A stretch of DNA of 64,000 nt from an uncultured Nanoarchaeota archaeon (GTDB lineage Archaea > Nanobdellota > Nanobdellia > Pacearchaeales > GW2011-AR1). Every line of letters begins with the position of its first letter. Position 1 is the first letter of the stretch. The translations under genes were made by a program, and so were the position numbers. Location: the NCBI GenBank assembly GCA_963779925.1, contig CAVZZS010000010.1:612-64611 (forward strand). The letters run 5' to 3'. A model generated the notes under the pieces. It had not been told where the DNA came from. It searched no databases and saw only the letters and a program-made list of their open reading frames with translations. Positions 3,628 through 29,295 of this stretch are shown here, piece after piece.

Positions 3628-3665
3628 TTCTTCTCCAAAAATTTCAGCATAATCTTTCCATGTAG

Positions 3666-3929: not shown

Positions 3930-3958
3930 TGACTAATATGTAGAAACAGGTATTTGCC

Positions 3959-6210: not shown

Positions 6211-6954
6211 TTATTTTGTCGCATATCCGCCAAGAATTGCAATATCATATGTGCCTAATGGAACCGGGGTTCCGCCCCCGCCTACTGCAGCGGATTCAGA
6301 AGAATAAAATCTCCAAGAGCCTCTAGCTTGAACAAAGAAATTATCCAGGAATTTTAATGTAACTGCTGCTCCCGCTTGAAAATCAGAACCGGCTGAAATA
6401 GGCAAATCAGCATTGCTGTTTCCAGAACCAGTCCATATGGTATCGCCTGCAAAGACTTCCAAATCTAATGGTCCTATTCTTGGAAGATGGTATGTTAAAT
6501 CTGCTGTAAAAAAATATTCTGGATTGTCTGCGGAAACTCCGGGATCTCCTTGAGTGTTGCCCGAGTATGTTTCATAAAAAGGCTGGTAAGCCTTGACATA
6601 ATTTGGTGATTCAGTCATAGCCCATGAAAATAAAACATCAGCTCCAAATCCGCTATCTCTATTTATGAATTCTGCATATATTTGAGGCATAGTGTCCAAT
6701 AAAGGCGTGTTACCAGGATCTGTTGTAGTAGCTCCCCAATCACTTGATGCAGGGGGGTTTCCAGCAACGCTGCCGGTTTCATAGCCTATACCCGCCCCGA
6801 ATCTGAATTCTATATTGGGTGCCGGACGAACATAATCTGGAAAGGTTTCTTTAGCCTGTTCAACCCAATCTTCTTGGGCAATCGCAGGAATTGCAACAGC
6901 AGCCGCTAATGTTCCTGCAACAATCAGAGGCGCTATTCTTCTTAATAAACCCAT
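6211..6954 (-). CDS. secreted protein with outer-membrane-like beta-barrel character
   Basis: Ala/Leu-rich Sec signal ending AIAQE. Repeated amphipathic alternating strands: IEFRFGAGIGYE, ADVLFSWAM, FFTADLTYHL, LDLEVFAG, AAVTLKF, FFVQARGSWRFY, YDIAILGGYAT. Visibly GC-richer. Confidence 0.55.
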   Translation of the reverse strand: MGLLRRIAPLIVAGTLAAAVAIPAIAQEDWVEQAKETFPDYVRPAPNIEFRFGAGIGYETGSVAGNPPASSDWGATTTDPGNTPLLDTMPQIYAEFINRDSGFGADVLFSWAMTESPNYVKAYQPFYETYSGNTQGDPGVSADNPEYFFTADLTYHLPRIGPLDLEVFAGDTIWTGSGNSNADLPISAGSDFQAGAAVTLKFLDNFFVQARGSWRFYSSESAAVGGGGTPVPLGTYDIAILGGYATK

Positions 6955-7909: not shown

Positions 7910-8251
7910 ATGAAGTATGAAATTGAAGAGCGAAAAGAAAAAGAGAAATACGGATTTATTGGGATGAATATTTTTGCAGCAAGAGCTCACGGAATTAATT
8001 GGCCCAAGAAACACGGACAGCATGTGATCAGAATTTACAAGAAAGTTCCAAAGAGCGTGAGGCTTCATACGATCCGCCATGAGGAATGCGAGCAGTATTT
8101 CATGAAGAATTTCCATTATTCCTACCATGATGCCCATCAGCTTGCCCTGAAATTTGAAAAATATGAGAAGCCTTTTCCAAAAAAGAATATTAAGAGAGAA
8201 CTTGAAAAAATCGGTTTGATTACAAGTAAAATAAAGGCAAAGAAAAAATGA
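7910..8251 (+). CDS. hypothetical basic protein
   Basis: 113 aa ORF whose stop overlaps the next start (ATGA). Confidence 0.45.
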   Translation: MKYEIEERKEKEKYGFIGMNIFAARAHGINWPKKHGQHVIRIYKKVPKSVRLHTIRHEECEQYFMKNFHYSYHDAHQLALKFEKYEKPFPKKNIKRELEKIGLITSKIKAKKK

Positions 8252-8703
8252 GTTATCCCCCTTATCCTAAGAAAAAACGAAGCGGAATGTGGATTATAGT
8301 TTTATTGGTTGTAGTAGGGGTTATTATTTATGCAAACAGCAAGGGGATTATAAATCTCGGCTCTCTGAATTTTGGAAATTTCAGCATGTCAGGAAACCAG
8401 AGTGGCACAGCATGCATACAGAAAGTTAATTCATGCGGCAGCATCATAAACCAGAAATATGGATCTAATGTGAATGTGTTAAACAGCACAATAGCGCAAA
8501 ATGCCAACGATGCAAATCAGTTTTTGGCAACATGGAAAAGTTCTTCAGAATCGGCAAGTATTGCAACTTACAATGTTTCTTCATATCCCATCACTTTGGT
8601 AGCAACGAGATTTGACAATACAGATGGGACAAAAACGCCTTATGTATTTATCTGCAAATCTGATGGAAATCTGGAAGAGAAAACAAATTCAGGTCTCTGC
8701 TGA
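8248..8703 (+). CDS. single-pass membrane protein with an extracellular domain
   Basis: Short basic N-terminus, one TM (WIIVLLVVVGVIIYA), and a Cys-containing ectodomain of about 110 aa. Confidence 0.5.
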   Translation: MSYPPYPKKKRSGMWIIVLLVVVGVIIYANSKGIINLGSLNFGNFSMSGNQSGTACIQKVNSCGSIINQKYGSNVNVLNSTIAQNANDANQFLATWKSSSESASIATYNVSSYPITLVATRFDNTDGTKTPYVFICKSDGNLEEKTNSGLC

Positions 8704-9537
8704 TTTTTTTGAGGTTAAGCCATTCGCAATTTTTATCTTACTCTCTATTTTGAATAATTTTTGCCGTATCCTTTCGCCTGTAATTCCGTATTCCTCGCCA
8801 AGGCTTTCATTAGTTCGGGGATAAGGAAAGCCGTTCAATCCATATTTTTTGTATAATATTTCTTTTTCTTCTGGCGTTAAATTCGCTTTTTTCAGGCTCT
8901 TTTGCAAAAATTGTTGATCATGTTCACTGTTCTCGCGTGTTTCCTGCTGCTGTTGAGGTCGATTATCAACTGCACGGGCTCCCCGTTCTTCTTCTCCATC
9001 ATCATAAGTAGAATCTATAGAGATAGGATCTGAAAATTGAAGAAGTTCTTCTACACTATCAACAGGCAAAGAAGAAATTTCTGCCAATTGCTCTATTGTT
9101 GGTTTTCTGCCATGTCTCTTCACATAATTTTCAGATTCTGAATTTAATCTGTCTGATTTTATTGCTTGATTAACCGGCAATTTAATAGTTCTGCTCTTAG
9201 ATATTATCGCATTTAGAATGGATTGTCTAATCCACCAGATTGCATATGCTCTAAAGTTTCGATTCTCTTTATTGGGATCATAGCGATCTATGCATTTCAT
9301 CAGTCCAATTCGGCCTTCCTGAATCAGATCTCCAAATTCCAGACTTCGCCTGTGTTTAAGATATCCCGTATAGTGTCCGGCAATAGCAGTTACTAAAGGG
9401 AGGTGAGTTTCAATTAATTTATCTTTAAGAGATTTATCTCTTGTATCTAGATATTCTCTGAATAATTCGTCAAAGTCCCAGCTATTATTCCACATATCCT
9501 TGCCATCTATATATCTTAAAAAAATATCTTTTGCCAT
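8689..9537 (-). CDS. bacterial-type sigma-70 family RNA polymerase sigma factor
   Basis: Region 2: DLIQEGRIGLMKCIDRYDP and FRAYAIWWIRQSILNAI. Region 3.0: SRTIKLPVNQ. Region 4: LTPEEKEILYKKYGL and SLGEEYGITGERIRQ. Confidence 0.85.
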   Translation of the reverse strand: MAKDIFLRYIDGKDMWNNSWDFDELFREYLDTRDKSLKDKLIETHLPLVTAIAGHYTGYLKHRRSLEFGDLIQEGRIGLMKCIDRYDPNKENRNFRAYAIWWIRQSILNAIISKSRTIKLPVNQAIKSDRLNSESENYVKRHGRKPTIEQLAEISSLPVDSVEELLQFSDPISIDSTYDDGEEERGARAVDNRPQQQQETRENSEHDQQFLQKSLKKANLTPEEKEILYKKYGLNGFPYPRTNESLGEEYGITGERIRQKLFKIESKIKIANGLTSKKSAET

Positions 9538-9584
9538 AAGTCAAAAAAATTTGTTTTGCTTAAAAGAGTATCTACTGAGAAAGA

Positions 9585-11024: not shown

Positions 11025-11786
11025 ATGAACCTTAAGGGGTTTTTTAAAATATTTCTAATGATTTCTCCATTAATTTTTTTAATTTTATACTTTTCCCTTA
11101 TTAATATTCATTCTTCCCAAAATAGCGATAATTCTTCCAAAAATGAATCACAAAATTTCACACTTGATAATTCTTATTTGACGCCTAATATAACTCAACC
11201 AAGTATTCAACAAACTCCAATCAAGTCTGCTGATCCAAGAGATAGCATGGATATTTGGTATTGGACATTACCAATTCATTATACTTTTTCAAAAGATAGC
11301 TCCTGTAGTGATGAAACAAAAATGCGAGTTCAAGATGCGATGAATATAATAAACAAGAATACAGATAATTATGTTTCTTTTCAAGAAGATTCTGATTTGA
11401 CTAATACAAGTGGGGATTATAAAGGAATTTATTTTTCTTGCATAGACCAATATAATGATACTCCAAGATCAGAAACTGAAGGAGATGCAAGTTTCTATTA
11501 TTACATTGGAACTAGAGAAATCTCTTCTGGTTCTATAGAATTATACAAACCAAATAGGGCTCAATACGAGTACTGCATGGGTTATCCTGATGTGGAAATA
11601 CATGAAATATTACATACAATGGGATTAGATCATATAACAGGTAGAGCAAGTATTATGAATTCAATTGCTCAAGAGGGATGTTTTAATTTAGACAAAGAGA
11701 TTTCAGATTGTTTAGAGTATATATATTCAAAAGGGCAACAAAATTATTCTTGCCAAGGAATTCCATTTCAGAGTGAAAGTCAATAA
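11025..11786 (+). CDS. secreted metzincin-type zinc metalloprotease
   Basis: Signal/TM N-terminus. HEILHTMGLDH matches HExxHxxGxxH, followed by SIMN (Met-turn). Confidence 0.8.
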   Translation: MNLKGFFKIFLMISPLIFLILYFSLINIHSSQNSDNSSKNESQNFTLDNSYLTPNITQPSIQQTPIKSADPRDSMDIWYWTLPIHYTFSKDSSCSDETKMRVQDAMNIINKNTDNYVSFQEDSDLTNTSGDYKGIYFSCIDQYNDTPRSETEGDASFYYYIGTREISSGSIELYKPNRAQYEYCMGYPDVEIHEILHTMGLDHITGRASIMNSIAQEGCFNLDKEISDCLEYIYSKGQQNYSCQGIPFQSESQ

Positions 11787-12097: not shown

Positions 12098-12685
12098 TTA
12101 TTTTTCTTCAACTACAGGAAAATTCTTCTTGTATTTCTTTCTTGCTCTGACGATTATAATAGCAATCACAAGCACAACTGCGAATGCAACTATTCCGATT
12201 ATTCCGCCCGCAGAACTCAATGGGCTGGTAACTCCGCCTGTCAAGGGCGCTGAACTTGTAAATGGATTGCTTGTATTTGACAAAATAGTATCATTTGTCA
12301 TAACATTAGGAGAAAATAGGCTACCATTGGAAGAATTCTGGATTTCATTTGCAGGGAGAACATTCACAGTCCTGTTTGCTTTTGCAATATTTCCTGAAGA
12401 GTCTGTAGAAGTGTATAAGACATAATAAGTTCCAAGAGCGCTAGTATCCACAGCATTTACAGTCAGCATATGGACAGTTATATTACCATCACGATTATCT
12501 ATAGCATTTGCACCAGCATCAATATACTGGCTTCCCAAAGCTATGTTGACAATAGAATTACCATTTAAAGTTATTACTGGGGGAATAGTGTCAGGAGAAT
12601 ATGAACTCGCATTAATTCCTGCGGAAATCATAATGATAGATAATAAGAAAACAGATGATATAAACAATGCAGCTCTTTTATTCAT
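12098..12685 (-). CDS. surface protein with an Ig-like (DUF5011-type) domain and C-terminal anchor
   Basis: PPVITLNGNSIVNIALGSQYIDAGANAIDNRDGNIT ... YYVLYTSTDSSGN matches the DUF5011 pattern. Tail APLTGG-x11-TM-RARKKYKK. Confidence 0.7.
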   Translation of the reverse strand: MNKRAALFISSVFLLSIIMISAGINASSYSPDTIPPVITLNGNSIVNIALGSQYIDAGANAIDNRDGNITVHMLTVNAVDTSALGTYYVLYTSTDSSGNIAKANRTVNVLPANEIQNSSNGSLFSPNVMTNDTILSNTSNPFTSSAPLTGGVTSPLSSAGGIIGIVAFAVVLVIAIIIVRARKKYKKNFPVVEEK

Positions 12686-15728: not shown

Positions 15729-16343
15729 ATGGAAAAAAATAATTCTACCAAAGAAATAGAAGAAAAAATAATTGAAGTCGGGCTTAGAATAGCCAGAAGG
15801 GGAGAAGGCGCTTTGATCGTTCTCGGAAAAGCAAATTTCAAGCCTCTTGTCGAGCAGAAAGTTCCTCCGTTCAAAATCGTTGATAATCTGAAATTATTGG
15901 AATCCCTTGCATTGATTGATGGCGCTGTTATAATCAATCATGAAGGCATAATGGAGAATTATGGGGTCATGATTGAATCAAGAAAGACAATGCAGGGTTA
16001 TGGGACACGCCATAGTGCAGGATTGAATGCTTCTCTGATCAAAGGCACAACTGCTTTTGTAATCTCAGAAGAAGATAAAAAAATAAGAGTCTTCAAAGAG
16101 GGGAAGGTTGTGCTTCAGATAGATGCCCTTGAAAAAGGCATAGAAAAGAGGACCCCTGAAATCGGCGGGATTCTTGCAAGTATAGGTGCAGGGACAATCG
16201 GGACTCTCGGAGTTGGAATGCTCATTCCGAATATAGGATTGACTTTGATTCCAGGCGTGATAATATTCGGTTCGACATATTTTCTGCTCAAGAAATTAAA
16301 TGATGCAAACCAGAACAAGAAATTATGGTCCTGGTTCTTTTAA
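15729..16343 (+). CDS. DisA_N/DAC-domain protein (putative diadenylate cyclase) with a C-terminal membrane region
   Basis: GEGALIVLGK, LIDGAVIIN, GTRHSAGLNAS and AFVISEEDKKIRVFKEGK follow the DAC pattern (GALIV, DGA, RHR, SEE). The C-terminus has two hydrophobic segments. Confidence 0.6.
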   Translation: MEKNNSTKEIEEKIIEVGLRIARRGEGALIVLGKANFKPLVEQKVPPFKIVDNLKLLESLALIDGAVIINHEGIMENYGVMIESRKTMQGYGTRHSAGLNASLIKGTTAFVISEEDKKIRVFKEGKVVLQIDALEKGIEKRTPEIGGILASIGAGTIGTLGVGMLIPNIGLTLIPGVIIFGSTYFLLKKLNDANQNKKLWSWFF

Positions 16344-17194: not shown

Positions 17195-17848
17195 ATGCCC
17201 GCAAAAAAGGGTTTATTCATTGTATTCGAAGGTGTTGATGGCAGCGGAACATCCACTCAAGCTCATAAGCTCAATGAAAAAATTAAGAGGCTTGACAAAT
17301 ATCAGGATGTTTTGGAAACTCATGAGCCTTGGAGAAACCAAGAGATAAAAAGAAAACTTAAGGAAGATAAAGATGCTTATTCTGAGCCGCTGGAAACGGC
17401 GGAGCTTTACATCGGAGACAGGACCGATCATTCTTATATTTTGATAAAACCAAATCTTGATGCGGGGGTAATTGTCTTATGCGTAAGATACAAGATGTCA
17501 ACGTATAGTTTCCAGCAGGCCCAAGGTCTCGATATTAACAGATTAATCAAAATGCACAATAATCGGGGCATTCTCACTCCAGATGTTACTTTTTTCATTG
17601 ATGTCTCAAAAGAAGTTGCAGAGGAACGAACCAGGAAAAGGGGCCCGCTTGAAAAGTTCGAGATAAATTCAGAATTTGTAGACAAGGCGATTAAGAACTA
17701 CCGAGAACTTGTATCCTTTTCAGAAAAAAATCCCGAATTATTGGGAAAAGTCATAAGAATAGATGGAAATCGTTCAATAGAACAAGTCGCGGAAGAAATT
17801 TACCAAAATTTTCTGCCGATTTACAATAATTGGGTTAAGTCAGATTAA
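17195..17848 (+). CDS. tmk: thymidylate kinase
   Basis: P-loop FIVFEGVDGSGTSTQ and a DR motif region. Placed 1 nt after the thyA stop. Confidence 0.85.
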   Translation: MPAKKGLFIVFEGVDGSGTSTQAHKLNEKIKRLDKYQDVLETHEPWRNQEIKRKLKEDKDAYSEPLETAELYIGDRTDHSYILIKPNLDAGVIVLCVRYKMSTYSFQQAQGLDINRLIKMHNNRGILTPDVTFFIDVSKEVAEERTRKRGPLEKFEINSEFVDKAIKNYRELVSFSEKNPELLGKVIRIDGNRSIEQVAEEIYQNFLPIYNNWVKSD

Positions 17849-17884
17849 TTTTATAAACAAACTATTTCTTCAAAATCGTATTAT

Positions 17885-17965
17885 GCCCACGTCGCATAAT
17901 GGTATTGCACAAGCTTGGAAAGCTTGGCCCGAAAGGGCTCGCAGGTTCGATTCCTGCCGTGGGCG
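17885..17965 (+). tRNA. tRNA-Ser (anticodon GGA), CCA not encoded
   Basis: Folded by hand. Acceptor GCCCACG/CGTGGGC. 3-bp D stem gca/tgc. Anticodon stem caagc/gcttg with loop ttGGAaa. Long variable arm gcccgaaagggctc. T arm gcagg-ttcgatt-cctgc. Discriminator G. Confidence 0.85.
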
Positions 17966-18044
17966 TCCAAAAAAAGGGAATACTTATTAATCTAAATTCC
18001 TCTTTCATATTATGTTTTGGAGAATGGATTTATAGCGGTTTAAA

Positions 18045-18656
18045 ATGAACATTACAAATCTAATAGGGATTGTTTCTTTTCTTTTATACTGTATATATTT
18101 CGTGCTGTTCTTCATGATACATCTAAAGAACAAAGAGTATAATGCAACAAAGCACGCAGTGAGCGACTATGACATTGGCAGCACGCACAAATTATTCCAA
18201 GTTTATATTTGGGTCGGCATCTTTGGGAGTCTGTCTTTGTCAGGAGCTTTCTTTTTGTCAGCAGATCCCATGTTCCACATAGTAATTCCTCTTCTCCTGA
18301 TCTCAATGGTTGTTTGCCGAATAGGATTGTCAATGTTCAAGACTGACATCGAAGGTAAAAAATTGACCCCGAAAGGGATTATCCATTATCTGTTTGCAAT
18401 TGGCTCATTTGCATTAGCTTATATTATCATTGCCAAAGTAGATGCTCTGTTTTTGAAGCAAGTATTGCCAAATGGAGTCAATCTGGCGATTCAAATTTAT
18501 GGTTATGCAATTATGGCTGCTCTAATTGGCGTTGGTATTACCATGTTTAAACCATTGCGCCGTTTCTTTGCCTTAATTGAACGGCTATATCTGGTACTTG
18601 TAAGCTCTTGGTTTTTAGTAATTAGCGCCGTATTTGCTATAATCGGCAAGTTATAA
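18045..18656 (+). CDS. polytopic membrane protein
   Basis: 203 aa with about six hydrophobic segments. Confidence 0.55.
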   Translation: MNITNLIGIVSFLLYCIYFVLFFMIHLKNKEYNATKHAVSDYDIGSTHKLFQVYIWVGIFGSLSLSGAFFLSADPMFHIVIPLLLISMVVCRIGLSMFKTDIEGKKLTPKGIIHYLFAIGSFALAYIIIAKVDALFLKQVLPNGVNLAIQIYGYAIMAALIGVGITMFKPLRRFFALIERLYLVLVSSWFLVISAVFAIIGKL

Positions 18657-18734
18657 TATGTCAAGCATAGCGGTTAATGATCATATCTTTTCAAAAAAGC
18701 AAATACTTATTAATTGAAAATTATCTTATTTTTC

Positions 18735-20057
18735 ATGGTTAGAGAAAAAATATTACTCGTAAGAGCTCCTAATTTATACAAATCGGATCAATGGAAAAAG
18801 CAAAGGGTACTAAGGACCCCTACAAATCTAGCTCTTCTTGCTTCGTATATAAGAGAAGAGGGAAATTATGATCCGAAAATTGTTGATTTTGAAACCTATG
18901 ACCTGAATAACATATCTGAAATATCGGATGTAATTCTCAGCCAGAATGCGAGATATATCGGTTTCTCTACATTGACTCCCCGTTTTCCGACGATATTGAG
19001 AATTGCCCAAGAAGTAAAGAAATCAGATAAAGATGTTAAAATCATAGTTGGTGGTCCTCATATTACTGGAAGGCCGCAAGACTGCAAGTATGGACCTATA
19101 GACTATGGAGTTATAGGAGAAGGAGAGCAGACATTTTTGGATTTGCTTGACAGTCTGACTTCAAAGCAAGATCCGCAAAACATTCCAAACTTAGTCTATA
19201 AGCAAGGGGAGAATGTAACAGTCAATCCAAGAAGGCCTTTTATCGGAGAACTGGATTCATTGCCCCTTCCCGCTTGGGATTTATTGCAGCTAAAAGAATA
19301 CTTAGACCCGACATTTTTCGAGGGCCCTCATGTTGGAATTTTTACATCCCGTGGATGCGCATATGATTGCATCTTCTGTGCATCTAAAGTAACATGGCAG
19401 CGTAAGATTAGACATAGAAGTATCGATAATATAGTTGGAGAATTGACCGAATTAAAAGATAGATGGGCTGTTAAAAATCTTTATTTTTACGACGATAATG
19501 TCGCGATAAATGAAGAACGTGCCATCACTCTATTTAATAAGATAAAGGAGATGAATTTCAAATATCAAATCCAGCTCAGAGCGGATTCTGTAACTCCTAA
19601 ACTTGCTTTGGCGCTGAAAGATTCAGGTTGCGTATCAGCAGCGATAGGTGTTGAAACAGGAAACGAGGAAATGCTAAAATTCATCCACAAAAAAGAAACA
19701 AAAGAAGAAATCAGAAGTGCGATTAAAGTGCTAAAAGAAGCAAGAGTCCCAGTTACAACCAGTTACATAATCGGCTTGCCGGGAGATACTAAAGAGACTG
19801 TAGAAGAAACAATACAATTTGCTAAAGAGCTTGATACGGAGCAGATGAAATTTATGCTCTTAACGCCCTGCCCTGGTACCGAAGTATATCAAATGGCTGT
19901 TGATGCGGGGAAATTAGATCCGGACGATTTAAAGCAGATGGAAAAGACAACCTTTTATGATACTACTGAAGTTAACCTTTCAAAATTAACCATTGATGAA
20001 TTGTTGCATTATCAGGATGTCGCATATAATGAGCTTGAAAAGCATGCAAAGCCCTGA
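18735..20057 (+). CDS. B12-binding-domain radical SAM protein
   Basis: N-terminal Rossmann-like B12 domain (IIVGGPHITG). SRGCAYDCIFCAS matches CxxxCxxC. ATG at 18735. Confidence 0.8.
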   Translation: MVREKILLVRAPNLYKSDQWKKQRVLRTPTNLALLASYIREEGNYDPKIVDFETYDLNNISEISDVILSQNARYIGFSTLTPRFPTILRIAQEVKKSDKDVKIIVGGPHITGRPQDCKYGPIDYGVIGEGEQTFLDLLDSLTSKQDPQNIPNLVYKQGENVTVNPRRPFIGELDSLPLPAWDLLQLKEYLDPTFFEGPHVGIFTSRGCAYDCIFCASKVTWQRKIRHRSIDNIVGELTELKDRWAVKNLYFYDDNVAINEERAITLFNKIKEMNFKYQIQLRADSVTPKLALALKDSGCVSAAIGVETGNEEMLKFIHKKETKEEIRSAIKVLKEARVPVTTSYIIGLPGDTKETVEETIQFAKELDTEQMKFMLLTPCPGTEVYQMAVDAGKLDPDDLKQMEKTTFYDTTEVNLSKLTIDELLHYQDVAYNELEKHAKP

Positions 20058-20097
20058 TTTTAAGAAAATTTATAAGTAATTTCTTCTTTAGAATCAA

Positions 20098-20481
20098 ATG
20101 AAAAGGGGATGGATTGATGTAATTCTAGTAGTTCTGGTATTCTTGGTAATTATAGGAGTCGTTTTAATAATACAAAGGGCAGCTCCGATTCATCCGAAAT
20201 CATCAGGTCACATCAATGTTTCTGTAACAGCAACGCATAATATTATCCTGGCGGATTATTCATTTACACCGTCACAATTGATAATAGGGGTCGGAGATAC
20301 TGTTGTCTGGACAAATAATGCCCCGACAGGGCATACGGTAACATCGGATAACGGAAATGAATTAAATTCTCCAACAATTGCAAGCGGAAGAACTTATTCT
20401 CATACTTTCAATACTGCGGGAACTTATAACTATCATTGTTCAATTCATCCCTCGATGATTGGTCAAATAATTGTTTTATAA
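20098..20481 (+). CDS. membrane-anchored cupredoxin (plastocyanin/amicyanin-like blue copper protein)
   Basis: N-terminal TM. Copper ligands are in GHTVTS and YNYHCSIHPSMIG (C-x2-H-x2-M). Confidence 0.8.
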   Translation: MKRGWIDVILVVLVFLVIIGVVLIIQRAAPIHPKSSGHINVSVTATHNIILADYSFTPSQLIIGVGDTVVWTNNAPTGHTVTSDNGNELNSPTIASGRTYSHTFNTAGTYNYHCSIHPSMIGQIIVL

Positions 20482-20526
20482 TTCTATTACATAAAATCTT
20501 ATAAAGGATTTATAGTCTATTTTTTT

Positions 20527-21165
20527 ATGACAACTAGGAGATTCGGACTTTTGGCTTTTCTTGGACTATTAGCTCTTTCTTCAACTTCTGAAGCGCAGGG
20601 AATTTATCTCAAAACCTCAGGCGGAGTATCTTTTGGTTCCGATAAGATTATAGAGAAGAATTATGGTACAATGCCCCTATTCAACATAGGAATTGGCATA
20701 GATGCAAAAAATGGATGGGCTGGCGAATTCGATTTTTTCCAAACCTCGAAACAAGGGCCGGTTATCAATTATTCAAGATTTAATGCTATTCCAAGAATGA
20801 TATTGCCATTTCCTGAAGATATAAGCAAAAGTTCAGAAATAGACGCATATAAAGTAGAATTGCGAGTGTCAAAATCTTTTGGTAAAAAAGGGGAACTTCA
20901 GTCATATGTGGGAATGGATTTATCCTATGAAATGGCTACCCAATCTGTAGCTGAAACTGTAAACGGAACGGCATCATCTTATTCATATGACATGAGCCTG
21001 TATGGTGCAGGAGTATTTGCAGGAGTAGTCATTCCAATTTCAAAGAATACTTCATTCTTTCTTGAAGGTCTTGCTGATGTTATACCTGTGCCTAATTCTC
21101 AAGTAAAAGATGCGACAGATTTTGGCGGAAATTCTGTTATTGTGGGAGTGGAATATTCTTTCTAA
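20527..21165 (+). CDS. outer-membrane-protein-like beta-barrel protein (OmpA/OmpW-size)
   Basis: Signal MTTRRFGLLAFLGLLALSSTSEAQG. First strand GIYLKTSGGVSFG. Alternating amphipathic strands throughout. C-terminal strand VIVGVEYSF ends in Phe. Confidence 0.65.
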   Translation: MTTRRFGLLAFLGLLALSSTSEAQGIYLKTSGGVSFGSDKIIEKNYGTMPLFNIGIGIDAKNGWAGEFDFFQTSKQGPVINYSRFNAIPRMILPFPEDISKSSEIDAYKVELRVSKSFGKKGELQSYVGMDLSYEMATQSVAETVNGTASSYSYDMSLYGAGVFAGVVIPISKNTSFFLEGLADVIPVPNSQVKDATDFGGNSVIVGVEYSF

Positions 21166-21166
21166 A

Positions 21167-21544
21167 ATGGTATCTTTAATGCAGATAGCTATTCCTCAAC
21201 CAAGTATAAAGGGAATAAAACAGATATTAACAGACCGGGGATATTATATAACTCCCGATTATGGTTTAATTAAAGAGAATCCGACAAGTGAATATGCGCT
21301 AGGCGCAGTAAGAAAAAGATCTTTTCTGTCTTATCGTCCTAAAAAATTGTATCATCCTGAAAAAGTGGTCTTTTCTTTTTCCATTCCGGAAGATGAAGCA
21401 ATGAAAAGCCAAATTGAATCAGAAGCGGGAAAATTATTGAAGATCTTAAATGAAGAATGTATTCTTTATGTAAATCTAACAGGAATGCAGGCTCATAGCT
21501 TATTTGAAATAGTTCCCAATAGGCTATATAGAGAGATAGCATAA
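21167..21544 (+). CDS. hypothetical protein
   Basis: The ATG lies 1 nt after the preceding stop. The upstream part of the track ORF overlaps the previous gene and is rejected. Confidence 0.45.
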   Translation: MVSLMQIAIPQPSIKGIKQILTDRGYYITPDYGLIKENPTSEYALGAVRKRSFLSYRPKKLYHPEKVVFSFSIPEDEAMKSQIESEAGKLLKILNEECILYVNLTGMQAHSLFEIVPNRLYREIA

Positions 21545-21574
21545 TTTTATAAAATCAGATATATCATTTACAAC

Positions 21575-21889
21575 ATGGACAAAGAAATAGGAAAAATCAA
21601 TAAAAATCCGACAACGGATATCGTGGTAAGGATTGATGATTTCGGCGATAGAAGAGGATTGACAATAAGGGAATATGTAAGCAGCGACAAATATACCGGA
21701 TTTACAAAATCTGGAGTAAGGATTCTTGCAAATGATTTCAAAAAATTCAAAGAAATGGTTAATTCAATTTCTGAAAGGGAAATGGAAGAAGGCCCATCCG
21801 GAAATGGAAATCACCAGGAAACATTTTCAGAAAAAGTCAAAACCGAAAAGCCAGGAATGGGAAAAGATTACGAATTGCCTGATTATTAA
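21575..21889 (+). CDS. PC4/p15-like ssDNA-binding protein
   Basis: IVVRIDDFGDRRGLTIREYVSSDKYTGFTKSGVRIL resembles the PC4 core (f.g...vdIRe...pTkkGi.l). Confidence 0.5.
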   Translation: MDKEIGKINKNPTTDIVVRIDDFGDRRGLTIREYVSSDKYTGFTKSGVRILANDFKKFKEMVNSISEREMEEGPSGNGNHQETFSEKVKTEKPGMGKDYELPDY

Positions 21890-21912
21890 TTCATAAGGTT
21901 TAAAATCTATTT

Positions 21913-22296
21913 TTGTATAATTTGTTCATGAAAAAAAAGGTAGTCAATGCATTAGCAACAATGTTTATTATATTGGTAATTGGAGGAACTTTATTCTTTG
22001 TAATAGAGAGACCATCAGCTGTTACAGTCTCTGCAGATGCTGCACAATATATCGGAAATCATTCAATAGTCTATGTCCAGGCAGGATGTGTACACTGTAA
22101 AGATCAGGAAGATTTATTCGGAAATAACTGGAAGTATATTAATTCATTAGACTGCATTGCCAGTCAGACAAATACACAGATATGCATAAATGAAAATATA
22201 ACAGGAACGCCCACCTGGGTCATAAATGGAAAACAATATGTAGGAGAACAGTCAATTCAAACATTGGAAAATTTAACAGGTTATATGGGTAAATGA
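21913..22296 (+). CDS. membrane-anchored thioredoxin-fold protein (CxxC)
   Basis: N-terminal TM. Active site GCVHC. Cis-Pro region TGTPTWVINGK. Confidence 0.7.
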   Translation: MYNLFMKKKVVNALATMFIILVIGGTLFFVIERPSAVTVSADAAQYIGNHSIVYVQAGCVHCKDQEDLFGNNWKYINSLDCIASQTNTQICINENITGTPTWVINGKQYVGEQSIQTLENLTGYMGK

Positions 22297-22997
22297 CAGA
22301 CGTTTTAACATTAGGAAAAATAACTTCTCTTGCATTGGTCAATTCTGTTAATCCTTGCCAGATCGCCATGCTTATTCTAGTACTGGTCGCAATCTTAACG
22401 CAAAATCCGGGAAAAAGAAAAAAGGTTTTATTATCTGGTTTTGCATTTATAGCTGCAGTATATATTGGATATTTATTCTATGGAATAGTCTTGGTTCAGT
22501 TATTCCAGGCATTTACAGAATTCTTAAGGCAAGGCTCAGTTTATGTAAATTATATCTTTGCGGCTCTTTCTATGCTCGTTGGAGGATTGCAGATTAAAGA
22601 TTTCTTCTTTTACAAAAGGGGAAGTTTTGCTACAGAAATGCCGCTTTCCTTCCGCCCAAAAGCAAAAAGGATTATCAACAAGATTACATCTCCAATCGGG
22701 GCATTCATTGTAGGATTTGTTATAACGCTTTTCCTGGGACCTTGCACGATGGCGCCATTATTGATTGCGACAGAATCTTTGTCGCAATTAGGGATACTTG
22801 GAGCGCTTCCATGGCTGTTGTATTTCAATTTCATAATAGTGCTTCCACTGATAGTGATTACGTTAATAATTTATGCAGGATTTACGACAGCAGAAAGTGT
22901 CTCCCAATGGAAAGAGAAAAATGTTAGAATCCTTCATTTAATTGCCGGAATTTTATTGTTCGGTATAGGGTTGGCTATCTTGTTGGGTTGGCTGTAA
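22293..22997 (+). CDS. ccdA: CcdA/DsbD-family thiol:disulfide electron-transfer membrane protein
   Basis: Six TM segments with the paired motifs NPCQIAML and GPCTMAPLL. The start overlaps the thioredoxin stop. Confidence 0.8.
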   Translation: MTDVLTLGKITSLALVNSVNPCQIAMLILVLVAILTQNPGKRKKVLLSGFAFIAAVYIGYLFYGIVLVQLFQAFTEFLRQGSVYVNYIFAALSMLVGGLQIKDFFFYKRGSFATEMPLSFRPKAKRIINKITSPIGAFIVGFVITLFLGPCTMAPLLIATESLSQLGILGALPWLLYFNFIIVLPLIVITLIIYAGFTTAESVSQWKEKNVRILHLIAGILLFGIGLAILLGWL

Positions 22998-23345
22998 ACC
23001 TTCAACTAATGCATCTAGATCTTTTAAACCAAAAGGTTTTCTCAAGTAGCCGCTTGCTCCAGCTTCGTCTAAGGCTTCCCTTGAAATTTCTCTGCCGCTC
23101 ATAAGATATAACGGTATATTCTTGCCAAAATCTTTTCTTATTATTTTTATAGCTTCAAGACCCTTGATAGGGGATCTCATATCGTTATCCGTAAGAACCA
23201 TATCATATTCAGCCTGTTTAATCTTCTCTAAAAGTTCCTCTGCATTCTGGCATGATTCTACTTCAAGGCCTTTCTGTTCAAGATAAGAACTAAGAAAAGA
23301 CCTGATTAATTCTTCATCATCGATAATAATAATTCTCTTTGGCAT
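22953..23345 (-). CDS. stand-alone response-regulator receiver domain (CheY-like)
   Basis: IIIIDDEE, phospho-acceptor context MVLTDNDM, conserved S/T in YLMSGR, and the K in LRKPF. Confidence 0.8.
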   Translation of the reverse strand: MPKRIIIIDDEELIRSFLSSYLEQKGLEVESCQNAEELLEKIKQAEYDMVLTDNDMRSPIKGLEAIKIIRKDFGKNIPLYLMSGREISREALDEAGASGYLRKPFGLKDLDALVEGLQPTQQDSQPYTEQ

Positions 23346-23393
23346 ATTATAACACTTTTAAGAACACTTTTAAAGTTTTTTATAAAAGAAAAA

Positions 23394-23807
23394 TTATTGG
23401 TATCTCTTGGCCGCTTCATTCATTCTTTGTTTAAATTCTGTAAGCCCTTCATCTTCTACAACACTACGCGTTTTTGTAGAGCTCTCAAGTTGACCATAGC
23501 CTGCAATTGTCTTCAATAATTCAGATGTTCTTTTTATGTCATTTCCATCTTCTAATCTTATTAAGTATTCTTTTGAAAGTTCCCCATGAGAGGTGTACGG
23601 GATTCCTTCCTCATCCATATAAGCTCTTAATGCATTATAGATATCAACTCTTTCCAAACTTAAAGTCGAACTTCCAGTAGTGGTACTATTTTCAAGAGCA
23701 TCCCAGGCGGCACGAGTCGTGGAATCAATATTGTCCGCATTTAATATAAAAAGCAAATTCTTCTTTTTTGAAGGAAGGGACTTTTGCAATATTTTTATGC
23801 TTGACAT
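23394..23807 (-). CDS. hypothetical protein
   Basis: 137 aa ORF directly upstream of the receiver gene on the same strand. Confidence 0.45.
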   Translation of the reverse strand: MSSIKILQKSLPSKKKNLLFILNADNIDSTTRAAWDALENSTTTGSSTLSLERVDIYNALRAYMDEEGIPYTSHGELSKEYLIRLEDGNDIKRTSELLKTIAGYGQLESSTKTRSVVEDEGLTEFKQRMNEAAKRYQ

Positions 23808-23827
23808 ATTTTTTTATATAGCTCAAT

Positions 23828-23837
23828 CTTTAAAAAT
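23828..23837 (+). promoter_or_regulatory. candidate TATA box (TTTAAAAATA) for infB
   Basis: Centred about 28 nt upstream of the ATG at 23861. Confidence 0.3.
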
Positions 23838-23860
23838 AAATCTATGTTTCAAGATATACA

Positions 23861-25621
23861 ATGGAACCCAAAAATATACGCCAGCCGATAATTACCGTAT
23901 GCGGGCATGTAGATCATGGAAAAACATCTTTGCTCGACAAGATTAGGCAGAGCTCTGTTCAGAAAACAGAAGCGGGGGGGATTACACAAAAGATCTCTTT
24001 TACATTATACCCTATAGACATGCTAAGAAAAGCTTTTCCTTTGATCGATGAAACTGGAACAAAACTGGATATCCCTGGTTTCTTGTTTATTGACACGCCA
24101 GGACATGCTGCATTTACAAATCTGCGAAAAAGGGGCGGAAGCCTTGCAGATCTGGCGATATTGGTAATAGACATAAATGAGGGAATAAAGCCGCAGACCG
24201 CAGAAGTAATCCAAATCTTGAAATTAAATAAAACCCCTTTCATAATTGCATTGAATAAAATCGACAATATTTCAGGATGGCGTTTGTCAAAGAACAGTAC
24301 GAGGGATTTGAAAGAAAATATAGATTCGCAGCCTCCAAATATAAAGCAGCTTTTTGATGAAAAATATCTAACGCTTGTTGCCGCTCTTAATAGTTTTGGA
24401 TTTGATTCTGATTTATATTACAACATCTCCGACTTTACAAAAAAGATTGCTCTTGTTCCCTGTTCCGCACGAACCGGAGAAGGAATTCCAGAATTGATCA
24501 TGATGCTCTGCGGATTAAGCCAGAAATATCTTCAGGACAAATTAACATTGGGCGAGAAGGCAAGGGGAGTCATTTTGGAAATAAAGAAAGAAAAAGAAAT
24601 GAATTACGTTGAGGCAATTCTTTATGATGGAGAACTTTCAAGAAAAGATGAAATTGCTGTCGCAGATTTGGATGGGAAAGCGATAATAACAAAGATCAGA
24701 CTGCTAGAAGAAATTCTTCCCTTGAGTTCAAAATTCTTCTCAAAGGAGGAAGTGAAAGCAGCAACAGGATTAAGACTGCAGTTGATTGAAAAGGCAGAAA
24801 TTCTTCCAGGAATGCCTTTTGTTGAATTTTCAGGCAATAAAGAAGAGATTGAAAAAACATTCAAGAAGGAAATTTCTGAAAATATAAAGACAGACAAGCA
24901 GGGGATAATTGCAAAGGCGGATTCTCTTGGAAGCTTGGAAGCTCTTCTCTTTTTGCTGCGGCAAAGCAATATTCCAATTGTTAAAGCGGGAATCGGGAAA
25001 ATAAGCAAGACAGATATAATTTCTGCAAAGGCCAGTCTTGAAATCAACGAGTTGGATACTGTAATTGTAGGATTTAATGTTTCAATAGATGAAGAGGCAA
25101 AAGCTCTTGCGGAACAAGGTACGAAAGTAAAAATTATCACCGATGATGTTGTATACAAATTAATCGAGAATCTGGTTGAATTCAGGGAAGCAAAAGGAAG
25201 GGAAATAGAAAAGAAAAGGCTGATGAGCCTCGCCTCTCTCTGCAAAATAAAGATTCTGCCCCAGTATGTTTTCAGAAATACAAGTCCTGCAATTTTTGGA
25301 ATAAGAGTTGAAGCTGGAAAATTGGTGCATGGCGTAAGTTTGATTGATAAAAGTGATGAAAAAGCAGGAAGAATAAAAAATATCCAATCCGAAAATCATT
25401 CCGTAGACGAAGCAACAGAAGGCATGGAAGTTGCAGTTTCAATTCCCGGTTCAAATTTTGAAAGAAAATTAAAAGACAAGGAATTTTTATATTCAGATAT
25501 TTCGGATTCGCAGTTTAGGAATTTCAGGAAGAACAAAGATCTATTGTCTTCGCAGGAAATTTCTGCATTGCAGGAAATCGCAGTAATCAAGCGAGAGAAA
25601 AATCCGGAATGGGGAAAATAG
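23861..25621 (+). CDS. infB: translation initiation factor aIF5B (IF2 homologue)
   Basis: GHVDHGKTSLLD, DTPGH and NKID G-motifs. At 586 aa the length and domain order are those of aIF5B. Confidence 0.95.
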   Translation: MEPKNIRQPIITVCGHVDHGKTSLLDKIRQSSVQKTEAGGITQKISFTLYPIDMLRKAFPLIDETGTKLDIPGFLFIDTPGHAAFTNLRKRGGSLADLAILVIDINEGIKPQTAEVIQILKLNKTPFIIALNKIDNISGWRLSKNSTRDLKENIDSQPPNIKQLFDEKYLTLVAALNSFGFDSDLYYNISDFTKKIALVPCSARTGEGIPELIMMLCGLSQKYLQDKLTLGEKARGVILEIKKEKEMNYVEAILYDGELSRKDEIAVADLDGKAIITKIRLLEEILPLSSKFFSKEEVKAATGLRLQLIEKAEILPGMPFVEFSGNKEEIEKTFKKEISENIKTDKQGIIAKADSLGSLEALLFLLRQSNIPIVKAGIGKISKTDIISAKASLEINELDTVIVGFNVSIDEEAKALAEQGTKVKIITDDVVYKLIENLVEFREAKGREIEKKRLMSLASLCKIKILPQYVFRNTSPAIFGIRVEAGKLVHGVSLIDKSDEKAGRIKNIQSENHSVDEATEGMEVAVSIPGSNFERKLKDKEFLYSDISDSQFRNFRKNKDLLSSQEISALQEIAVIKREKNPEWGK

Positions 25622-25668: not shown

Positions 25669-26715
25669 ATGGATTATAGAAGAGCCGAGATTTTAAGCGG
25701 AGGAGCAGGAAAAGGTTTCTGTTATACTGGATATATAAAAGCAAAAGAAGATTTGGGAATAACTGATAGCGATCTTGGAGAAAAAAGTTTAAAATTTGCG
25801 GCTTCAATTGGGTCATATTATGCAGCAGGTCTTTCTTTAGGTGTAAAGGCAGGCGAAATAGAGAGATTTACAGAAAATAATAAAAAATTAATGGGCAATC
25901 TGTTCAAGCCCAGGCTTGACAGGATTATGTCTGCATTGGCAGGCTTAGGAAATCTCGGTAATCCTCGTTCTATAGAAAACTGCAATGGCGATGATCCCGA
26001 TTCTCTTCCTGATACGGGGTTATGTGATATAAGAAATCTTGAAAGGATCGCAAGGGTATTTACTGGCGATAAAAAGCTAAAAGATGTGAAAGACTTGAAT
26101 ATTATAGTAACAGACAGGCAGACATTCAAGCCAATTGTGATGAATTATAAGACATTTCCAGATGTTTATGTCTATGAAGCAATCATGGCTAGTTCCGCTT
26201 TTCTTCCAGCTTTCTCTCCAGTAATTATAAAAAATGAAGGGTTAAAAACAATCGTAATGGATGGCGGATTATCAAATAATGTCCCGTTGGATTTGGCATT
26301 ATTAGAAGAATCAGTCAGAGAAATTGTTTGTGTTGATTTATCATATGCCTCGGCTGTTAGAAAGATTCCTGTAACTGGAAATTTTATCTGGGACTATTCT
26401 CTTGAATCATTTTCTGCAGGGGCTCAAAAAACTAGAGGAATATTCGAGGCTCAGAAATTAGATTACGATAAAATCGCAAAAGATAGGATAGTTGAAATGG
26501 AATGTAACGGCAAAAAACAAGTATTATATCTAACCCCAAACATTCATTATACTAGATCATTCAGATCTGATACCGATAATGTAAGAGAGTTATCTGAAAA
26601 AGGATATGAAGAATTCAGAGAAGCATTAAAGGAATTTGAAGAATATAAAAAAGGGAATAAGCCCGCCTTTGGAACATATTCTTGTAGTGACTCTGATTCT
26701 AAAGTTTCTATTTAG
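25669..26715 (+). CDS. patatin-like phospholipase
   Basis: GGAGKG oxyanion motif, AASIGS (GxSxG variant) and MDGGLSNNVPL (catalytic DGG). Confidence 0.7.
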   Translation: MDYRRAEILSGGAGKGFCYTGYIKAKEDLGITDSDLGEKSLKFAASIGSYYAAGLSLGVKAGEIERFTENNKKLMGNLFKPRLDRIMSALAGLGNLGNPRSIENCNGDDPDSLPDTGLCDIRNLERIARVFTGDKKLKDVKDLNIIVTDRQTFKPIVMNYKTFPDVYVYEAIMASSAFLPAFSPVIIKNEGLKTIVMDGGLSNNVPLDLALLEESVREIVCVDLSYASAVRKIPVTGNFIWDYSLESFSAGAQKTRGIFEAQKLDYDKIAKDRIVEMECNGKKQVLYLTPNIHYTRSFRSDTDNVRELSEKGYEEFREALKEFEEYKKGNKPAFGTYSCSDSDSKVSI

Positions 26716-28485: not shown

Positions 28486-29295
28486 ATGAAAGTCTTTTCT
28501 CATTCCAGATTAAGCACTTTTGAGCAGTGCAATCTAAAATACAAATTCAGGTACATAGACAATATTATCCCTGAAATTGAAAAAACGATTGAAGCGCATC
28601 TTGGGAGCATCGTGCACCAGACTTTGGAATGGCTTTATTCGGAAGTGAAGGAAAAAAGGATTCCAACAATTGATGATATGATTGTTTATTTTTCAAAAAG
28701 TTGGATGGAAGAAAATAAAGAAACTTTGATGCAGAATAATAATGATGAGCAGAAGTATTTCAATAAAGGAGTAAAATATTTGCTCGATTATTACAATAGA
28801 TACAAGCCTTTTGAGGACAATACAATTTATGTTGAAAAGGAAATTTCAATAGATTTGGATGAAAAAGGCGAATTCAAAATAAGGGGTTTCATTGATCGGC
28901 TTGCATATAATCTTGCTACAAAAGAATATGAAATTCATGATTACAAAACTTCCAATACAATGCCGCAGGGAGATAAAATCGAAAAGGACAGGCAGCTGGC
29001 GCTTTATTCCATCGCGATAAAAGAGATGTTTGGGCAAGATAAAGAGGTAAGATTAATCTGGCATTATCTTTTCTTCAACAAAAGGATAGAATCGAAGAGG
29101 ACTGATGAACAGCTTCTCCAATTAAAAAAAGATACACTTGAGCTAATAAGGATAATAGAATCAACGACAGAATTTTCTCCTAACAAATCGCATTTATGCA
29201 ATTGGTGCGCATACAAGCCTATCTGTCCTGCATGGAATAATGTAAAAGAATACATGCCAAAATTTGAGAAGCAGAAAAAGCTTGGGGATTTTTAA
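28486..29295 (+). CDS. PD-(D/E)xK nuclease of the RecB/Cas4 type with a four-Cys cluster
   Basis: N-terminal Cys (EQCNLKYKF), FIDRL, EIHDYKT, QLALY, and C-terminal CNWCAYKPIC. Confidence 0.75.
   Translation: MKVFSHSRLSTFEQCNLKYKFRYIDNIIPEIEKTIEAHLGSIVHQTLEWLYSEVKEKRIPTIDDMIVYFSKSWMEENKETLMQNNNDEQKYFNKGVKYLLDYYNRYKPFEDNTIYVEKEISIDLDEKGEFKIRGFIDRLAYNLATKEYEIHDYKTSNTMPQGDKIEKDRQLALYSIAIKEMFGQDKEVRLIWHYLFFNKRIESKRTDEQLLQLKKDTLELIRIIESTTEFSPNKSHLCNWCAYKPICPAWNNVKEYMPKFEKQKKLGDF

Follow-up and report, generated by a model that had tools for sequence, protein, structure and literature searches.

A bacterial-type eight-stranded outer-membrane beta-barrel protein resident in an archaeon of the Nanoarchaeota

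Background

Transmembrane beta-barrels of the OmpA, OmpX and Opa type, together with the Omp85 insertion machinery, are regarded as hallmarks of diderm bacteria and of the organelles that descend from them, and stray archaeal matches to such barrels are usually dismissed as contamination. The gene described here encodes a barrel of this type and lies on a stretch of 64,000 nucleotides from an uncultured Nanoarchaeota archaeon (assembly GCA_963779925.1, contig CAVZZS010000010.1, positions 612 to 64,611), hereafter called the window. It is an intact open reading frame (ORF) of 212 codons at 20527..21165 on the plus strand (product P0001). Its translation is exactly the 212-amino-acid (aa) protein quoted in the original prediction, which had been made from the sequence alone and had proposed an outer-membrane-like barrel. 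Our analysis demonstrates that the gene encodes a true homologue of the small outer-membrane beta-barrels of bacteria (the group of OMP_b-brl, Opacity, NspA, OmpX/Ail and the transmembrane domain of OmpA, OmpA-TM). It also demonstrates that the gene is resident in an archaeon of the DPANN radiation (Diapherotrites, Parvarchaeota, Aenigmarchaeota, Nanoarchaeota as well as Nanohaloarchaeota), namely of the Nanoarchaeota, Woesearchaeota/Pacearchaeota group. Both the fold and the superfamily are familiar; what is unexpected is the domain of life and the cell plan in which they occur here, with signs of long residence.

Among described proteins, NspA is the best match in the PDB both by profile and by structure. 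NspA and Opa (PF02462) resemble the window protein in being eight-stranded barrels of similar size, and Opa shares with the window family the combination of conserved strands and hypervariable external loops. They differ in that the window protein stays below the Opacity threshold (16.3 versus 21 bits), is 15% identical to NspA in structural alignment, has a conserved loop L1 with a short helix and belongs to an archaeon without evident beta-barrel assembly machinery (BAM) or outer membrane. OMP_b-brl (PF13505, with Pseudomonas OprH as its representative; COG3637, "opacity protein and related surface antigens") has in common with it the length class, the signal peptide and the C-terminal aromatic residue. 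PF13505 is a bacterial outer-membrane family, whereas the window sub-family is almost confined to DPANN contigs.

Similar relations hold for the enterobacterial barrels OmpX, Ail and OmpA-TM. These likewise have eight antiparallel strands, short periplasmic turns, a polar, charged interior and strands that protrude past the membrane (beta4-beta6 of 20-23 residues), and they rank high among the Foldseek matches, although the single window protein yields no sequence-level match to them. Unlike full-length OmpA, the window protein ends at its last strand and has no peptidoglycan-binding OmpA_C domain. From the OmpW family it differs in its predicted polar, charged lumen, and only three of the 11 aligned members of its family match OmpW.

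Two further barrels, Bdellovibrio PopA (Bd0427) and Neisseria PorB, are made by a predator and a pathogen, respectively, and end up in the membrane of prey or host (PMC12228718). They provide a functional analogy only: no homology is shown, BAM first builds each of them into the outer membrane of its producer, and PopA is larger, a pentameric assembly that traps lipid. The pore Ihomp1 (Imp1227) of the diderm Ignicoccus hospitalis is the only outer-membrane protein of an archaeon to have been characterised; it is alpha-helical and unrelated in sequence and fold (PMC3422733). Full-text literature searches retrieved no description of barrels of the outer-membrane protein (OMP) type in Nanoarchaeota, Woesearchaeota or Pacearchaeota. 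The nearest published remark concerns a possible distal PopA relative in Altiarchaeales (PMC12228718).

Results and discussion

Homology to bacterial outer-membrane barrels

Exhaustive phmmer/HMMER search of 1.84 billion cluster representatives retrieved 14 proteins at E<1e-3, the relatives having E-values from 9e-21 to 6e-5. About ten of them are full-length relatives of ~180-235 aa that share 25-40% identity and carry a signal peptide wherever the N-terminus is intact. When 11 aligned members were compared with Pfam, matches to OMP_b-brl (PF13505) were found for eight (best 6.1e-14), to Opacity for seven (at E<=1, best 6.5e-7) and to OmpW for three (best 1.8e-4). Three of the proteins (P0012, P0014, P0016) have precomputed PF13505 matches, and P0014 bears the Joint Genome Institute (JGI) name "opacity protein-like surface antigen". 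In a search of the PDB, the family profile matched NspA best (1p4t, E=1e-4); Opa60, the translocator of NalP and OmpW came next, the OmpW chains at E=0.14-0.83. By sequence comparison, homology to PF13505 is established through intermediate sequences and the profile.

The original prediction had proposed Pfam models of OMP_b-brl, OmpW and Opacity as a check. The window protein itself remains below all gathering scores, and similarity to these three families is reached via its relatives and the profile. On its own it gave no match to PF13505, OmpW (PF03922) or the OmpA domain in hmmscan at E<=1, and none in NCBIfam. A word-indexed search of 5.8 billion proteins with the window protein returned only the protein itself. 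From the same database the profiles A1 and A3 (the latter trimmed of the signal peptide) recovered 3-4 proteins, so this database holds few members.

Two of the proteins retrieved have unusual architectures. P0011 (389 aa) carries a 210-residue N-terminal extension and a Pro/Gln-rich linker before the barrel, and P0015, a giant of 3681 aa, contains four matches to residues 15-60 of the window protein.

Predicted structure of the barrel

AlphaFold2, supplied with the 11-sequence family alignment, modelled an eight-stranded barrel with a mean predicted local distance difference test score (pLDDT) of 83.1 and a predicted template-modelling score (pTM) of 0.74. According to the model and the family alignment, the strands comprise residues 23-37, 48-60, 64-76, 99-118, 125-145, 148-170, 175-185 and 201-211. 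The first strand GIYLKTSGGVSFG and the last strand VIVGVEYSF, both read earlier from the sequence alone, coincide with modelled strands, and the earlier estimate of 8-10 strands resolves to exactly eight. The protein is thus predicted to form a closed barrel of eight antiparallel membrane-spanning strands. In the membrane-proximal halves of the strands, hydrophobic (lipid-facing) and polar (lumen-facing) residues alternate well beyond chance: dyad hydrophobicity amounts to 2.64, compared with 1.48 +/- 0.38 in shuffled sequences, 20 out of 5000 of which reach the observed value (p ~0.004).

Foldseek comparison of the model with the PDB gave 75 matches at E<=1e-3, and all 50 that were listed are bacterial outer-membrane barrels. 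NspA (5.6e-8), OmpA-TM, Ail, OmpX, OmpW, OprF-N and OprG are among them. In terms of query-based template-modelling score (TMq), porin III of the Legionella type IV secretion system (T4SS) reached 0.73, and OmpW/OprG up to 0.60. Among viral structures, phage-encoded OMP barrels were matched. A barrel is therefore predicted and its structural neighbours are OMPs, and the objection that the chain might form no barrel falls away.

The signal peptide (20527..20595, plus strand; residues 1-23) has a predicted cleavage site between SEA and QG. Inspected by eye and by heuristic rules, the segment MTTRRFGLLAFLGLLALSSTSEA preceding QG shows the basic n-region, the hydrophobic core of ~12 residues and the small residues at -3 and -1 that agree with the signal noted originally. 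In the AlphaFold2 model it forms a helix at residues 6-18 that lies outside the barrel. Full-length family members have an equivalent hydrophobic leader that ends in a small residue and is followed by Q or D. A Tat signal, hinted at by the sequence TRRF, was rejected, since the RR pair lacks conservation among family members.

On the side of the termini, the three turns hardly vary in length across the family (2-3, 5-7 and 4 residues). Variation in length is confined to the opposite side, namely to L2 (4-22 residues), the tip of the beta5-beta6 hairpin, L3 (11-21), and L4 (14-26). Loop L2 (20755..20820, plus strand; residues 77-98), a putative external loop modelled with pLDDT of ~53-59, is longest in the window protein within the family and has a gap fraction of 0.50. 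The most conserved loop is L1 (20638..20667, plus strand; residues 38-47, SDKIIEKNYG), with a short helix at 40-46 in the model. It has ten residues in all 11 sequences, contains no gaps and shows a mean top-residue frequency of 0.55; its consensus is SDxxxQxxYG, in which Y46 and G47 are nearly invariant. Positions predicted to face the lumen abound in charged and polar residues, R113 and E180 being nearly invariant. If the predicted faces are correct, the lumen would resemble plugged barrels of the OmpA/OmpX type more closely than the hydrophobic OmpW channel.

The last strand (201-211) carries the beta-signal-like motif GNSVIVGVEYSF (21127..21162, plus strand) with G at -5, Y at -2 and a terminal F. 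At least 90% of members share F212, and G200/G201 show little or no variation. Phenylalanine is the very last residue in eight of the 11 members; the other three carry 1-3 extra residues (K, LK or SK) after it. Nearly all relatives end in G(V/I/L)(K/E/R)(Y/F/H/N)xF. The C-terminal beta-signal described earlier is thus present (G-V-E-Y-S-F) and conserved. As to its recognition by BAM, which had also been claimed, what stands is the likeness, with no BAM component in evidence.

Archaeal ownership of the gene

Archaeal hallmark genes flank the barrel gene on one contig, with S10 at 15.3 kb and aIF5B at 23.9 kb. The aIF5B gene (23861..25621) is 90% identical to that of a Woesearchaeota metagenome-assembled genome (MAG) and 61-81% identical to those of ~80 species-representative loci, nearly all of which are labelled Nano-, Pace- or Woesearchaeota. 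The contig also carries aIF2-gamma with an eIF2_C domain, S6e, Kae1, uS10 and a YGR210-type GTPase, distributed on both sides of the barrel gene.

The arrangement is reproduced in other assemblies. Window positions 17768-23979 are found in the Logan assembly of run ERR11571142 with 99.98% identity over 6.2 kb, and positions 17962-24603 in a long-read-style strain contig in ENA from another sample (ERZ25039473) with 97.7% identity. The barrel gene has no substitutions between two strains whose nearby DUF998 and radical SAM genes differ by 3-4%. Its GC content (0.377) is close to that of the window (0.367 +/- 0.029), and its codon usage, ranking 29th of 65 genes, is typical. A frameshift allele on the ENA contig (P0002; one additional A, last strand lost) was considered as phase variation and rejected as a sequencing artefact, because this contig contains 27 gap openings that also affect essential genes, including aIF5B.

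It could be argued that a Gram-negative fragment was joined to archaeal DNA by chimeric assembly or contaminated binning, since the protein type is otherwise bacterial, and since the labels "Omnitrophota" (L003) and "bacterium" (L019) given by NCBI to related MAG contigs demonstrate that bins can be mislabelled. We consider this extremely improbable. The junctions are the same in three independent assemblies, which come from different runs or samples, hallmark genes of archaea stand on both sides of the barrel in the same contig, and GC content, codon usage and the archaeal-type spacing of the TATA box are native. Moreover, two other DPANN species (loci L007 and L083) carry the same block of genes, and a third (L002) retains a scar of the barrel between the same flanking genes, as described below. 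The possibility of a chimera, which had been named at the outset among the refuting conditions, thus finds no foothold.

The two contigs with bacterial labels, L003 ("Omnitrophota bacterium") and L019 ("bacterium"), encode aIF5B proteins 72-80% identical to that of the window and are probably mislabelled or mis-binned DPANN contigs.

Distribution and deletion history of the family

Six loci bearing family members were inspected. Five belong to DPANN, one (L087, a short contig with a TrmB-like regulator) is uninformative, and none is clearly bacterial, which answers the earlier question whether homologues occur in DPANN or in bacteria. The block consisting of cupredoxin, barrel, small ORF and PC4-like genes recurs in L083 and in L007, a GTDB-representative Woesearchaeota MAG whose aIF5B is 79% identical to that of the window; L007 has it in inverted orientation, on the opposite side of aIF5B. 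L088, which is the contig of the closest family member P0004, encodes eL43 (L37ae), Spt5-NGN, uL11 and prefoldin. L084 shares with window positions 8248-10886 the synteny of seryl-tRNA synthetase (SerRS), sigma-70 and a 151-aa ORF, and its SerRS is 60-71% identical to Nanoarchaeia/Woesearchaeota enzymes, as opposed to at most 44% to bacterial ones. A bacterial assignment of L084, based on its Sigma70 match, was rejected because the window has a syntenic sigma-70 gene and the SerRS of L084 is closest to that of Nanoarchaeia.

Few members of the family were recovered, by scans that are insensitive. Near aIF5B, one of 80 DPANN loci (L007) has a member; near SerRS, none was found in 80 loci, of which just a few are archaeal. 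When 185,579 species-representative genomes were scanned, the single protein found none and pattern A2 found only the L007 contig. A hand-built motif pattern gave 15 matches in the same genomes, the one real match being again the L007 Woesearchaeota contig. A metagenome scan with A2 detected only the contig of P0004, and no member was found in the viral contigs scanned.

The history of the gene is best seen in L002, the closest relative of the window organism. Its gene order is cupredoxin, PC4-like, Trx, DsbD, response regulator (RR) and aIF5B, with only ~150 nt between the first two genes. This interval (L002 3867-4020) is a deletion scar composed of three collinear pieces. The first contains the TATA box of the barrel gene, its ATG and ten codons of a family-type signal peptide (MNLLKKFAKI...); the second (...YSF-TAA-A-ATG) is identical in 17 of 17 nt to window positions 21153-21169; the third is the promoter of the PC4-like gene. 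The fusion is in frame and leaves a mini-ORF of 16 codons at 3912-3962 (MNLLKKFAKIGSRYSF). On account of this scar, the ancestor shared by the window organism and L002 had both the barrel gene and the ORF downstream of it, and the L002 lineage later lost the two by deletion.

Taken with the synteny in L007 and L083, the scar demonstrates vertical residence in the clade, as opposed to recent acquisition. Divergence is rapid: identity of the window barrel to its L007 counterpart is 32%, compared with 79% for aIF5B, 62% for cupredoxin and 50% for the PC4-like protein. Judged from the sequences retrieved, the barrel family is small and fast-diverging, and its known contexts lie almost all in the DPANN clade. 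We infer that it descends from an old bacterial-to-archaeal transfer.

Promoter, partner ORF and neighbouring genes

A TATA-like element, CTTATAAAGG (20498..20507, plus strand), lies 28 nt 5' of the barrel ATG and probably serves as promoter. When the 65 genes of the window were examined, TATA-like hexamers formed a sharp peak at -29 to -27 with 36 occurrences, over a background of 1-4 per position, and the hexamer of the barrel gene at -28/-27 falls exactly on this window-wide peak. Such spacing implies mostly leaderless or very short-leader transcripts in this organism.

The barrel stop codon (TAA, 21163-21165) is separated by a single base from the ATG (21167) of a partner ORF (21167..21544, plus strand; 125 aa). 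Homologues of this partner are found directly 3' of the barrel gene in L007 (overlap of 4 nt) and L083 (gap of 1 nt), in L002 the partner has been lost together with the barrel, and three other family loci have the barrel without it. On the evidence of gene order, the barrel and its partner of 100-125 aa appear to be a two-gene cassette, with abutting or overlapping stop and start codons in three species, that is gained or lost as a unit. The partner has no predicted signal peptide and no match in Pfam, NCBIfam, PHROGs or PADLOC, and its best PDB profile match (E=0.016) is at chance level. Neither the barrel nor the partner nor the PC4-like protein had a match in phage or defence libraries. 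A role of the partner as export chaperone was considered and not adopted, being speculation.

The gene directly upstream encodes, as originally noted, a cupredoxin. It is membrane-anchored (20098..20481, plus strand; Pfam Copper-bind 3.3e-11, Cupredoxin_1 6.2e-9), ends 45 nt before the barrel gene and has its own TATA box at -29/-28. Both the cupredoxin and the next gene downstream, a PC4-like small protein with a weak Pfam PC4 match (21575..21889, plus strand), are syntenic flanks that lie outside the cassette. The PC4-like gene likewise has its own TATA box at -29 to -27; a PC4 match is recorded for its L083 homologue. It adjoins Trx, DsbD and aIF5B in L002-L006 and L081, all of which have no barrel gene.

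The original prediction had placed the barrel in an operon with cupredoxin and had observed that its stop abuts the next ATG. The latter is correct to within one base. The single operon is not upheld: because the barrel gene has its own TATA-like box at -28, the two genes are probably not co-transcribed. Functional coupling of barrel and cupredoxin was also rejected, given that L002 keeps the cupredoxin without the barrel and that three family loci have no cupredoxin. To judge from the arrangement, only the downstream ORF 21167..21544 looks coupled with the barrel gene.

No paralogue of the barrel was detected by phmmer among all ORFs of at least 60 aa in the window. The ORF at 6211..6954 has no detectable relationship to the family and aligns with it over the signal peptide only (hhalign probability 20%). 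It encodes a secreted protein of 247 aa on the minus strand, and a second secreted protein, of 548 aa, is encoded at 40039-41685 (minus strand); neither has a Pfam match. Their signal peptides are in the style of the barrel family (MGLLRRIAPL...AIAQ and MKIMKKVAPIALALSLAAG..., respectively), and the two are probably the other barrel candidates of the original prediction.

Proposed role

With a probability of roughly 0.55, we favour the reading that the gene was acquired from a bacterium long ago and has been retained in this Nanoarchaeota clade; its product would be a dispensable, quickly evolving surface barrel that probably serves as anchor or adhesin at the interface with a host. The barrel and its partner would be transcribed as a short-leader or leaderless bicistron from their own archaeal TATA promoter. 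Export of the precursor would then run through the archaeal Sec system, with cleavage behind SEA, and the mature barrel of 189 residues would fold into a lipid bilayer without a dedicated insertase. Small eight-stranded barrels such as OmpA, OmpX and PagP do fold into bilayers in vitro without BAM. Once inserted, the protein might act as a membrane anchor rather than a channel, displaying the conserved L1 and the three hypervariable loops L2-L4, and would function as an adhesin or contact protein between symbiont and host. Pacearchaeota are strongly host-attached (PMC7906910), and OMPdb places OMP_b-brl under adhesion (PMC9581022).

Several points weigh against this reading. The barrel assignment is based on transitive, profile-level and structural evidence: the only Pfam match of the window protein alone at E<=1 in hmmscan is Opacity, with 16.3 bits against a cutoff of 21, and phmmer found nothing for it in the PDB. 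The structural model depends on the 11-sequence alignment, as AlphaFold2 given the single sequence reached a pLDDT of 30, which is useless. No gene for Omp85/BamA, POTRA, Skp, SurA, Lol, Lpt or TolC was detected among ~55 ORFs scanned across the 64 kb, and archaeal genes for Omp85/BamA, Skp/SurA, Lol, Lpt or TolC are not known. Conservation of the terminal phenylalanine could reflect folding or stability rather than recognition by a machinery. Further, the barrel is dispensable, being deleted in L002 and missing from most related loci examined, and the adhesin role is drawn by analogy with Opa, NspA, Ail and OmpX.

The clade might alternatively keep the barrel for a bacterial-type outer membrane, either built by the archaeon or belonging to a Gram-negative host, which we find doubtful even when both cases are taken together. 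A diderm archaeon, in whose second membrane the barrel would be a genuine OMP with variable loops facing the environment, is an unlikely explanation. Length variation restricted to the loops opposite the termini is what exposure to the outside predicts, the signal peptide and the beta-signal-like C-terminus are conserved, and there are diderm precedents among archaea, namely Ignicoccus, ARMAN (short for archaeal Richmond Mine acidophilic nanoorganisms) and Altiarchaeum (PMC8871954), besides the possible distal relative of the barrel protein PopA noted in Altiarchaeales (PMC12228718). Yet the 64 kb contain no outer-membrane biogenesis gene, and loss from the closest relative and from most related loci would be odd for a structural component of an outer membrane. 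The alpha-helical nature of Ihomp1, the sole characterised archaeal outer-membrane protein (PMC3422733), and the imaging of ultrasmall groundwater cells, of the candidate phyla radiation (CPR) or DPANN, without an outer membrane (PMC7906910) point in the same direction. Similarly improbable is a host-directed effector. The barrel would be released, or passed on in vesicles or where the two cells touch, and would come to lie in the outer membrane of a Gram-negative bacterial host, inserted either by host BAM reading the beta-signal or unaided into a host membrane, to serve as tether or conduit. Such a role could account for a G-x-x-Y-x-F terminus kept in an archaeon without evident BAM, although the motif may equally be kept for folding. 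The lineage is rich in bacterial-type genes, including sigma-70 at 8689..9537; bacterial hosts for some DPANN have been considered (Castelle et al. 2021, PMC8204110); ultrasmall cells attached to Gram-negative hosts, and strong attachment of Pacearchaeota, are on record (PMC7906910); and PopA of Bdellovibrio and PorB of Neisseria are precedents for barrels moved into the membrane of another cell (PMC12228718). Against this, BAM works from the periplasmic side, to which there is no evident route from outside the host, and no secretion or injection apparatus adjoins the gene.

A channel for the uptake of hydrophobic or small solutes across whichever membrane holds it, of the OmpW/OprG or OmpA-pore type, in place of an adhesin, is less plausible again. 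Three members have weak OmpW matches (best 1.8e-4), OmpW and OprG are among the structural matches (TMq up to 0.60), and DPANN rely on imported lipids and metabolites (PMC6349945). However, matches to Opacity, NspA and OMP_b-brl are stronger than those to OmpW in both sequence and structure, the predicted lumen is charged or polar (R113, E180) unlike the hydrophobic OmpW channel, and in a transporter one would expect neither that variation is concentrated in the loops nor that loss comes so easily. Patchy distribution, outright deletion in the closest relative and very low conservation (25-40%) might finally suggest a functionless passenger, an acquired bacterial gene drifting towards loss. 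This we hold to be very unlikely, as at least six loci still have an intact ORF in spite of 60-75% sequence divergence, with signal peptide, strand and turn lengths, invariant glycines and terminal phenylalanine all retained. Besides, composition is fully ameliorated, the promoter stands at the canonical distance, the gene has no substitutions between strains that differ by 3-4% in nearby genes, and the block is syntenic across species whose aIF5B is 79% identical.

Residence of such a barrel in an archaeon raises the questions how it is inserted without BAM, into which membrane, and whether its beta-signal might be read by the BAM of a bacterial host. It bears on the matter of bacterial hosts for some DPANN (Castelle et al. 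2021, PMC8204110) and on the firm attachment of Pacearchaeota (PMC7906910). If either of the outer-membrane cases were true, the protein would be the first molecular handle on an episymbiosis between archaeon and bacterium or on an archaeal outer membrane containing beta-barrels. Even if it is only a rarely retained surface protein, it would still be a clean case of how a class of membrane proteins believed to need its native machinery was passed between domains and domesticated. Being small and cofactor-free, it should refold readily, which makes its biochemistry tractable though the organism is uncultured.

Other genes on the contig

The sigma-70 gene of the window (8689-9537, minus strand) is of bacterial type, with a Sigma70_r2 match of 63 bits together with r3 and r4 matches, and its homologue in L084 is located at 3410-4222. 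It is syntenic with SerRS and the 151-aa membrane ORF in L084, which also carries a member of the barrel family. Sigma-70 and other bacterial-type genes are known in DPANN, especially in Woesearchaeota (Castelle et al. 2021, PMC8204110). Further genes of this kind on the contig encode gyrase A and B, a diadenylate cyclase (DAC) domain protein (15729-16343, plus strand), a patatin-like phospholipase (25669-26715, plus strand) and MacB/FtsX. The phospholipase may be relevant to a lipid-scavenging symbiont. Gyrase A is present as two overlapping ORFs on the minus strand, 29292-31403 and 31315-31839: the first 86 positions of the DNA_topoisoIV model are found in the 174-aa ORF and positions 85-431 in the 703-aa ORF, which points to a frameshift, to an error in sequencing or to a gene that is split.

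Comparison of the window with the strain contig L104 showed that homology breaks at 17962, within the 3' end of a tRNA-Ser(GGA) gene (17884-17969). Upstream of this point L104 (1-3433) carries Transglut_core and HTH_11 genes in place of Tmk/ThyA, and the tRNA-Ser site may be a hotspot of integration or rearrangement. At 38205-39278 (minus strand) lies a series of small genes, possibly a remnant of a mobile element, whose domains are of the types DUF192, "putative phage metallopeptidase" (7e-23) and ASCH.

Surface or secreted proteins are predicted at 12098-12685 (minus strand), 35451-36557 (minus strand) and 11025-11786 (plus strand). They comprise a bacterial Ig-like/HYR protein anchored at its C-terminus, another protein that has four HYR domains, and a secreted metallopeptidase of the matrixin type (M10). 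In L084, an M10 peptidase gene adjoins the barrel gene.

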